Shown: in pieces, positions 6,672-9,600 of the stretch
Layout: the number at the start of each line of letters is the position of its first letter
How positions within the stretch are numbered: the first letter of the stretch is position 1
NCBI GenBank assembly: GCA_016200005.1
Contig: JACQFP010000066.1
Span: forward strand, 13,578 to 77,577
Origin: Verrucomicrobiota bacterium
GTDB taxonomy: Bacteria > Verrucomicrobiota > Verrucomicrobiia > Limisphaerales > PALSA-1396
Direction: 5' to 3'
Length of the DNA: 64,000 bases
The notes under the pieces: model-generated
Seen by the model: the letters and a program-made list of their open reading frames with translations, nothing else
Database searches by the model: none
Told to the model about the DNA's origin: nothing
Made by a program: the position numbers and the translations under genes

Positions 6672-9600
6672 ATGTGCCCGCGGAGAAATCAACCGCCGCC
6701 GGCATGGGCGTCGCCGGCCGCATCGCCCGCGCGTTCATCGACTCGCAGCTCACGCCGTTGATCATCATTTCGTCCGTGCTGCTTGGCGTGGCGGCCGTCT
6801 GGCTGTTGCCGCGCGAGGAAGAGCCGCAGATCAAGGTGCCGATGGTGGACGTGCTCGTTGCCATGCCCGGCTTCAGCGCCAAGGAGGTCGAGGAACGCGC
6901 CACGCGGCCGATGGAAAAACTCCTCTGGGAAGTTCCCGGTGTTGAATACATCTATTCCACGTCGCGACCCGGCGAGAGTCTCGTCATCGTGCGTTTCAAA
7001 GTGGGCGAGGACGTTGAGAAAAGTCTCGTCAAGCTCTCCGAAAAACTGCGTTCCAACTTCGACCGCATTCCGCACGGCGTTTCGTTTCCGCTCATCAAAC
7101 CGCGCTCCATTGACGACGTGCCGATACTCGCGCTGACCTTTCACAGCGACCGTTACGATCATCTCACCCTCCGGCGTCTCGTCGCACAAGTGGACGATGC
7201 CGTGAAACAAGTCCCGCTCGTTGCCGAAACCGCCGTCATCGGCGGCGCGCGGCGTGAAGTGCGCGTGCTGCTCGATCCCGCTCGTCTGGCCTCGCGCAAA
7301 CTCAGCCCGGTCGCGCTCGTGCCGATGTTGCGCCTGGCCAATCGCCAGTTCGGCTCCGGCAACCTGACGAGTGACAACCGCGAAGTCATTGTTGAAACCG
7401 GCGGATTTTTGACGAGCGCAAAAGAACTCGGCAATGTTGTCGTGGGCGTGTTCAGCGGCAAACCGGTCTATCTGCGCGAAGTCGCTGAAATCGTCGATGG
7501 CGCCGAGGAACCGTCGCAATACGTTTTCTTTGGAGAAGGCGCGGCACGATCCGTGAATGCGAATGAGCAACCCGCCGTGACGCTCAGCATCGCGAAACGG
7601 CCGGGCGCGAATGCCGTTTCAGTCGCCCGCCAGGTCCAGAAAAAAGTCGAGACGCTGAAAGGCACTTTGATTCCGGACGATGTTCACGTCTCCGTCACGC
7701 GCAATTATGGCGAGACGGCGTCGGAAAAGTCGAACGAACTTCTCTTTCACATGCTGCTCGCGGTACTGGGCGTTTCGATATTGATCTTGCTGACTCTGGG
7801 CTGGCGTGAATCGGGCATCGTAGGCATCGCCATTCCCTCGACGCTGGCGTTGACGTTGCTGATTTTTTATCTCTACGGCTACACACTGAACCGCATCACG
7901 CTTTTCGCGCTGATTTTTTCCATCGGCATTCTGGTGGACGATGCCATCGTGGTCATCGAAAACATCGTCCGCCATTTTCGACTGCCGCAGAACAAAAACC
8001 GCGCCTTGTCCAGCGTCGCCGTCGAGGCCGTCAACGAAGTTGGCAATCCAACCATCCTCGCTACGTTTGCGGTGATCGCAGCGGTGCTCCCGATGGCGTT
8101 TGTGGGCGGCTTGATGGGACCTTACATGCGACCGATTCCGATTGGTGCGGGCGCAGCCATGTTCTTCTCGCTGGCCATCGCCTTCATCGTCACGCCCTGG
8201 GCTGCGATCCGCCTTCTCAAACGGACCGATGGAGCGAAAGAAAATCCCCAAGACTCCACCACTCCATCACTCTATTCCGAAGACTTCTTCACGCGCATTT
8301 ACCGGCGCATCATGGGGCCGCTGATTTCCCATCGGCGTTGGCGCTTTGTTTTCCTTGGGAGTATCATCGGCCTGTTGTTGCTGGCGTTCGCCCTAGTTGG
8401 TATCGGCTGGGTGAAGGTGAAAATGCTGCCGTTCGACAACAAGAGCGAGTTTCAGATCATCCTCAACATGCCCGAAGGTAGTTCGCTCGAACGCACCGCT
8501 CAAGCCGCGCGGGAAATTGCCGCGGCCATCCGCGTCGAACCGGAGGTGACGGATTACCAGATTTACGCCGGTGTGGCCGCGCCCTTTAATTTCAACGGGC
8601 TGGTGCGCCATTACTTTATGCGTCGGGGCGCGCACATCGCCGACCTTCAAATCAATCTGGTCAACAAGCACGACCGCAAGGCGCAGAGTCATGACATTGC
8701 CAAACGAGTGCGGCCAAGGGTAGCGCAGATTGCGGCGAAGTTTGACGCGCGCGTGGCTGTGGCCGAAGTGCCGCCCGGCCCACCGGTGTTGCAAACGCTG
8801 GTCGCCGAGATCTATGGACCGACTGAAGAATCACGACTAGCCCTCGCCGGCGCCGTGCGTGACATTTTCAAGAACACTGCGGGCGTGGTCGATGTTGATT
8901 GGTACGTCGAAGCGAACCAACCGAAGACAAAATTCATCATCGACAAGGAAAAGGCCGCGTTGCACGGCATCAGCGCCGAAACGATTTCCCAGACCCTCCG
9001 CATCGCCGTCGGCGGGGAATCCATCGACTTGCTGCACCAGCCGCGCGAGAAGGAAGATGTGAACATCGTGCTTCAACTTCCCCGCGCCAGCCGCACCACG
9101 CCGGAAGAACTTCTCGCGTTGCGTGTCCGTTCCGGTGACGCCAATGCCCTGCCGGAACCGGGAGCAGCGGTTGGAAGCGTTCCGCTGGTGCCGTTGCGTG
9201 AACTGGTGACTATCGAACACACGATCACCGACAAAAGCATTTATCACAAAAATCTTTTGCCGGTGACGTATGTCATCGGCGACGTGGCGGGTGTCGTCGA
9301 AAGTCCGGTCTATGCGATCCGCAAAATGAACCAGGCGATTGCAATGCTGGATGCGAGCGAGTTCATCAATGTTGGTAGCAGCGGACATGAGTCCGCTCCA
9401 TCTGCACTCCGAAATCCGAAATCCGAAATCCGAAGTAGTCAGAGCCGACTGACGTCGGCTGCTACGGGGGTGAAAATCTACAACGCCAATCTTCCATTTA
9501 CTGATGCGCAACCTGCCTTGAAGTGGGACGGCGAGTGGCATATCACCATCGAAGTCTTTCGCGACCTTGGCCTGGCTTTCGCCGCCGTGTTGGTGCTGAT

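Follow-up and report, generated by a model that had tools for sequence, protein, structure and literature searches.

A palindromic element carried in frame by an efflux pump gene of a Verrucomicrobiota bacterium is very likely a REPIN-type mobile element

A 64,000-nucleotide stretch of a Verrucomicrobiota genome (Limisphaerales; contig JACQFP010000066.1, positions 13,578 to 77,577), here called the window, contains a 91-nt palindromic element at 9375-9465 that lies in frame within the gene for an RND efflux pump. We consider it very likely that this is a non-autonomous mobile element of the REPIN type, made of two inverted repetitive extragenic palindromic (REP) hairpins, each tagged with GTAG, around a short variable spacer, and that it derives from an ancestral insertion into the pump gene.

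The letters at 9375-9465 are GTAGCAGCGGACATGAGTCCGCTC, then 43 nt, then GAGCCGACTGACGTCGGCTGCTAC, exactly as quoted in the initial annotation. The left arm (9375..9398, plus strand), a REP of the type named G-arm, consists of a GTAGC tail and the hairpin AGCGGAC-ATGA-GTCCGCT; the right arm (9442..9465, minus strand) is a REP of the C-arm type in inverted orientation, reading GTAGCAGCCGACGTCAGTCGGCTC on the minus strand. The centre between them (9399..9441, plus strand) is variable, with conserved inner borders (CCATCT... and ...AGTCA). The two 24-nt arms had been described as inverted copies of each other. Inverted they are, the repeat search finding them complementary at 20 of 24 positions (83%) with a spacing of 43 nt, but the copies are not exact: in the hairpin stem G and C are swapped with compensation, and loop bases also differ.

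Each arm folds on itself, as had been proposed, into a 7-bp hairpin with a 4-nt loop that leaves the GTAGC tail unpaired (-8.0 and -7.8 kcal/mol with DNA parameters; z-scores -5.0 and -4.2). When folded as RNA, the whole element forms one long hairpin of -36.9 kcal/mol (z-score -5.3), matched by none of 200 shuffled sequences, and when folded as DNA its minimum-energy structure is a pair of small hairpins. The sequence GTAGCAGC was counted six times in the window against an expectation of 0.6. An Rfam search at the element returned no family, the only matches being two chance ones to miRNA models (E 0.45 and 0.68). Inside the centre, the 7-nt unit TCCGAAA is repeated perfectly 3.9 times in tandem (9408-9434), and the element is 21 nt (seven codons, or three 7-nt units) longer than the 70-nt copies found at the orthologous site. 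The window copy would have gained these 21 nt at a later time through slippage of the 7-nt unit and, since three whole units were added, the frame of the pump was preserved.

The arms are not unique to the window. A family scan of species-representative genomes with the degenerate arm GTAGCAGCSGACRTSAGTCSGCTC gave at least 120 loci among the matches listed, nearly all of them in Verrucomicrobiota metagenome-assembled genomes (MAGs) of subdivision 3, Pedosphaera and Limisphaerales. In the source metagenomes, the word depth of the element was 20-200 times that of its flank. Some repeat-bearing third-party annotation MAG contigs are labelled 'uncultured Bifidobacterium', 'Bifidobacteriaceae' or 'Klebsiella' (L020, L025, L036, L037, L041 and L047); these labels are probably taxonomic errors and were not taken as spread beyond Verrucomicrobiota.

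When the arm-scan loci, the pump-orthologue loci and the window were pooled, 243 arms were counted, arranged as 98 doublets and 45 single arms. Doublets were 58-91 nt long, most often 70-71 nt, apart from a single outlier at 173 nt, and 79 of the 98 were heterodimers of a G-arm (GCGGAC..GTCCGC) and a C-arm (GCCGAC..GTCGGC). Their inner borders, CCATCT and AGTCAGA, are conserved around a variable centre, and this conservation, together with the polarity of G-arm and C-arm, indicates that the doublet and not the single hairpin is the copied unit. Across the superfamily, represented by 70 distinct arm sequences, the stem pairs 9-20, 10-19, 11-18 and 12-17 are variously GC, CG, AT or TA; this set had been pre-filtered for pairing, hence the evidence lies in the diversity of pair types only. 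The invariant parts are GTAGC, the GC clamp and the loop RTNA, and within the family GTAG is found in nearly all members, with a few GTGG variants.

The element can be assigned to the GTAG REP doublets, or REPINs, because genes for REP-associated tyrosine transposases (RAYTs) in related genomes are flanked directly by its arms. Two arm loci, L112 and L119, have open reading frames (ORFs) of ~185 aa that match NCBIfam NF047646, the REP-associated tyrosine transposase family (E 2.5e-11 and 4e-13). The best PDB match of these RAYT-like proteins is E. coli TnpA-REP (4er8), whose HUH motif aligns with PDHVHLVW and whose catalytic-tyrosine motif aligns with YIxxNP. A scan with the alignment of the L112 and L119 proteins yielded 80 loci, essentially all from Verrucomicrobiota, and 32 of them contain arms with at most three mismatches to the family of the pump copy (family A) within the ~3.5-kb locus. 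In L228, L236 and L252, a distance of 0-100 nt separates the RAYT-like gene from exact family-A arms, close variants flank the gene in L256, L270, L271 and L280, and most of the remaining loci are flanked by a sister family, GTAGCAGCCGACGTGAGGAGGCTC, which is the type of the third and fourth copies in the window (see below). At L228 2052-2075, the flanking GTAG REP supplies, with its TAG, the stop codon of the RAYT gene. The correspondence between RAYT similarity and flanking REP type gave a fuzzy picture, the two arm patterns overlapping at two mismatches.

Two further features of these loci were recorded. The RAYT gene of L236 (831-1451) has an in-frame stop, and REP doublets form tandem arrays with periods of ~107-181 nt in L271, L252 and L085, those of L271 and L252 adjoining RAYT genes.

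[quoted passage not shown] The doublet flanks are weakly conserved (AAnCYY on the left, RR on the right) and could lengthen the inverted repeat, and bacterial MITEs such as Correia/NEMIS, RUP and Nezha are likewise short, non-coding, dispersed and bounded by inverted repeats, some of them inside genes. We nevertheless hold this origin to be very improbable. MITEs have target-site duplications and a DDE-type parent IS, whereas no duplication of 3-8 nt was present in any of 79 oriented copies and a 2-nt duplication was seen in three of the 79, which is the chance level (2.3 expected). Moreover, each arm is itself a REP hairpin, tagged with GTAG and varying in its stem by compensatory changes, and the sole gene recurrently flanked by arms is the one for the HUH/Tyr RAYT-like protein.

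For the favoured REPIN origin, a RAYT, acting as an HUH/Tyr single-strand DNA transposase, would make or maintain the copies in trans, and would recognise the hairpin and its GTAG tail on single-stranded DNA. The basis for such an action is the biochemistry of E. coli TnpA-REP and of the IS200/IS605 family. One copy would have entered the pump gene in an ancestor that the window organism shares with its closest relatives, where its survival could be accounted for by a length that keeps the frame, by the lack of stops in that frame and by a permissive periplasmic loop; more generally, intragenic copies would persist only where length, frame and protein site permit. The insert is presumably transcribed and translated, adding ~30 hydrophilic, probably disordered residues to a flexible surface loop.

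The host gene (6668..10033, plus strand) encodes an RND efflux permease of the AcrB/ACR_tran family (1121 aa; Pfam ACR_tran, E 5.5e-157), and its ORF runs uninterrupted through the element, as initially annotated. The insert is located in the last periplasmic loop, ~25 residues ahead of the helix that aligns with transmembrane helix 8 (TM8) of ZneA, AcrB and MexB. Measured between the conserved peptides ESPVYAI and KWDGEW, this loop has 80 residues in the window and 51 in 60 of 79 orthologues from species-representative genomes, as well as in 88 of the 120 nearest database proteins (retrieved with a 341-aa pump fragment as query), indicating that the element is an insertion. An in-frame double-hairpin element belonging to a repeated family was what the initial annotation had proposed, and both the loop lengths and the spread of the arms agree with it. 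The lengths from GTAG to CTAC across copies fall into all three classes modulo 3; with one extra base counted on each side, the window copies become multiples of 3 (93 and 72 nt). In the nearest orthologues with an empty site, the loop is too diverged to fix the insertion joint or the target.

Loop length is variable among the genome orthologues (43-117 aa), as it could be if the pump had at this place a low-complexity loop of an ordinary, lineage-specific kind, or if the stretch were an artefact of the assembly, with palindromy that is incidental. The chance of this is negligible in our view. The many loci described above show identical arms both within unrelated genes and between genes, and z-scores over the folds computed ranged from -4 to -7.5. 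An artefact is excluded because, in three groundwater-metagenome runs, independent contigs read across the insert without a single difference.

A 70-nt copy, at the identical nucleotide position and in the same frame, was found in the closest relatives (P0001-P0003 and P0107, 81-86% identity; loci L281-L283), and its centre is recognisably homologous to that of the window copy. Since site, frame and centre are shared, the insertion is older than the split between the window species and these relatives. In the alignment of orthologues, a homologous peptide was confined to these close relatives, where it is present by descent, and was not found in unrelated taxa, in agreement with the insertion initially annotated. 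An AlphaFold2 model of the pump built from 66 sequences was of moderate quality (mean predicted local distance difference test, pLDDT, 67.8), and residues 305-331, which correspond to the insert, had pLDDT below 50 and were without secondary structure. As modelled, the insert is probably a floppy or disordered addition of ~30 residues to a surface loop.

Two side observations concern the pump locus. The closest pump among the species-representative genomes (83% identity) carries in this loop an element, GTAGCTGC...GCAGCTAC, that is related but not the same (L121 2110-2328); its left end uses another reading frame (VAADVSP...), which suggests an independent hit or a replacement. Long antisense ORFs on the minus strand traverse the pump element (8837-9697) and the second copy in the window (29417-30316). 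They can do so because the palindrome has no stops on either strand, and they are likely spurious, though naive ORF finders would call them.

Several points weigh against the REPIN interpretation. The matches to NF047646 score 44-50 bits, under the curated cut-off of 80, and a Pfam search (Y1_Tnp) gave no match for the RAYT-like proteins. A tblastn search of the RAYT against the window gave no match either, and the cognate enzyme is known from relatives only. Judged from its sequence, which falls under the NCBIfam cut-off and is invisible to Pfam, the associated RAYT appears to be a distant branch, and in this it differs from known RAYTs. To our knowledge, the transposition of a REPIN by a RAYT has never been demonstrated directly in vivo for any family. 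The location of the copies is a further difficulty: REPs are extragenic by definition, yet the pump copy and two other window copies are in frame inside genes, and 42 of the 98 doublets lie in long open frames, so that the term 'extragenic' is inapplicable here. Doublets were scored as intragenic when an open frame extended for at least 60 codons on each side, a crude criterion that is also satisfied by frames antisense to real genes; of 70-nt segments taken at random from the same loci, 65% qualified, which means that the family is only mildly depleted from coding sequence.

The degree of arm conservation is the last of these points. Comparison of species at the orthologous pump site gave 96-100% identity for the 48 bases of the arms, 74-90% for the flanking 600 nt and 50-79% for the third codon positions of these flanks, and the centre, unlike the arms, diverges between orthologues. 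The copy in a methyltransferase gene of the window, described below, is identical to its orthologue at 70 of 70 positions, with flanks at 79-90%. On a four-taxon tree, ~2 arm substitutions stand against ~19 expected by a rough hand estimate from flank identities. Such near-perfect conservation is not predicted by a passively decaying insertion; it would fit with selection in place, with gene conversion between the copies or with RAYT-dependent upkeep from a master sequence.

Selection in place would make the element a retained functional module with its arms under purifying selection, possibly an mRNA hairpin modulating translation or decay ahead of the second transmembrane bundle, or a site in the DNA at which RAYT, gyrase or a nucleoid protein acts. 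All of the conservation just described is in its favour, as is the strength of the mRNA hairpin. We think it unlikely all the same, given that concerted evolution or RAYT-linked upkeep of a master sequence gives the same pattern without local function, and that most orthologous pumps work free of the insert. Furthermore, the pump loop of other species contains inserts from at least five other palindromic families (within P0004-P0116), which argues for tolerance rather than specific function.

The same holds for other proteins, since in-frame inserts from several unrelated palindromic families were found in the methyltransferase loop (P0122-P0219) and in the linker of an ABC exporter (L285-L364), the hosts of two more window copies. 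Tolerance of the loops is the simplest reading for their being hit repeatedly, and targeting to pre-existing hairpins is a less simple alternative. In homologue P0169, the methyltransferase loop is occupied by 137 inserted residues that include a PF04480/PF18741 domain, and the precomputed Pfam list of homologue P0154 has PF01797 (Y1 transposase) beside PF01555, which may be a transposase insertion or fusion.

With regard to translation, GTAG blocks one frame per orientation and CTCTGA blocks another in reverse, and the three usable frames are free of stops in 66, 53 and 53 of 79 copies, respectively. The commonest reading begins xSSGRESA... and the dominant exit frame is ...SRLTSAAT. Stop-free frames, hydrophilic peptides and a preferred exit frame fit a more far-reaching proposal, namely a REPIN family specialised for life inside coding sequence across a phylum-level lineage, whose arms would be actively kept identical at orthologous intragenic sites as the synonymous sites beside them near saturation. 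We offer this proposal tentatively and regard it as doubtful.

Four copies in total are present in the window, two of family A and two of the sister family, GTAGNNGNCGACGTGAGGAG. Three of the four were said to lie inside ORFs, and homology confirmed the host genes of all three, namely the pump, a 5'-truncated DNA methyltransferase and an ABC exporter. The second copy (29724..29793, plus strand) is a 70-nt family-A doublet in the same orientation and reading frame as the pump copy. It had been noted to share the ends and inner borders of that copy, and its arms are indeed near-identical, with the inner borders CCATCT and AGTCAGAG in common. Its host is a gene for an adenine DNA methyltransferase (29387-30703), and it falls in the C-terminal part, where homologues have 50-55 residues vs 84 in the window, and the insert is also present in the orthologue P0121 (L284; 90% identical). 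The truncation is seen at the nucleotide level, as homology to the full-length gene (L284 67-1986; 639 aa, PF01555) begins at L284:756, equivalent to window position 29485, and the catalytic N6_N4_Mtase domain is missing.

The copies at 40235..40305 and 61187..61254 had been listed as related to the pump element; they are, though as members of the sister family, and the left arm of the latter has decayed. The first of them (minus strand) is an intact doublet with arms GTAGCCGCCGACGTGAGGAGGCGG that encodes VAADVRRRSGSVEESNRLLTSDVT in frame within the linker that joins the membrane domain of the ABC exporter (39454-41331, minus strand) to its ATP-binding domain. This linker has 41 residues in 28 of 56 orthologues vs 58 in the window, and the insert is common to L285, L287 and L312. 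The other, with no strand assigned, is an intergenic doublet with a good right arm (61231-61254) and a left arm that retains 16 of 24 positions.

At least four further families of palindromic repeats were noticed in the window, at 47839-47984; 45676-45777; 60281-60358; 13967-14033, 26668-26736 and 48298-48372; and 22062-22182. Their arms include CCCCTCACCCTCTCCCC/GGGGAGAGGG, GCAGAGGACTGCCGCACTCCA and GCCCCGTGG/CCACGGGGC. Read by eye, the pump loop of another species (P0034) seems to hold, inserted in frame, a peptide resembling that of CCCCTCACCCTCTCCCC/GGGGAGAGGG.

In its anatomy, the family resembles known GTAG REPs and REPINs, which have GTAG 5' of a short hairpin (6-9 bp, and 7 bp here), doublets in inverted orientation around a variable spacer, a tendency to form heterodimers and sub-families with compensatory stem changes. 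As in REP/RAYT systems, RAYT genes are bracketed by cognate REPs, here in related genomes. Besides the defining paper considered below, the literature on GTAG REPs and REPIN-RAYT systems is said to include Nunvar 2010, Bertels and Rainey 2011, and Ton-Hoang 2012. In behaviour, the element is also similar to the Rickettsia palindromic elements (RPE), palindromic repeats that lie in frame in genes at permissive sites. Of these, RPE-1 is longer (~100-150 bp), AT-rich and not known to have a linked transposase. The RPE are reportedly the classic in-frame case (Ogata 2000, 2002), translated as extra surface segments of functional genes.

The text of Di Nocera 2013 (PMC3733652) assigns the CGTC tag to the RPE-4 and RPE-6 types and defines the GTAG REP superfamily, including its heterodimer preference and the flanking of RAYT genes. 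Intragenic GTAG REP dimers that encode 20-30 residues are also described there, most numerous in the Verrucomicrobium Opitutus terrae, and the pump insertion is therefore not a new kind of event. The arm GTAGCAGCSGACGTSAGTCSGCTC is absent from the text and the supplements examined of that paper, figures apart, and the present family, unlike the Opitutus REPs, belongs to subdivision-3 Verrucomicrobiota. Thus, the phenomenon is already published, and the present repeat family, a very widespread one, appears to be undescribed.

For annotation, the finding means that the ~30 odd residues in each of the three hosts (pump, methyltransferase, ABC exporter) derive from a repeat and ought not to be taken for functional motifs, and that the repeat will seed spurious protein similarities. 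With three unrelated proteins hit repeatedly, these inserts are also a natural experiment on which protein loops tolerate insertions of 20-30 residues. The orthologous intragenic copies carry built-in neutral controls, the neighbouring synonymous sites, against which the non-decay of REPIN arms can be judged, so that the choice between selection, concerted evolution and RAYT-dependent maintenance, a question of the REPIN field, is directly testable on them. If the family were indeed specialised for coding sequence, it would be a maintained, heritable generator of protein-loop insertions rather than decaying junk, whether through selection or through RAYT-linked correction.

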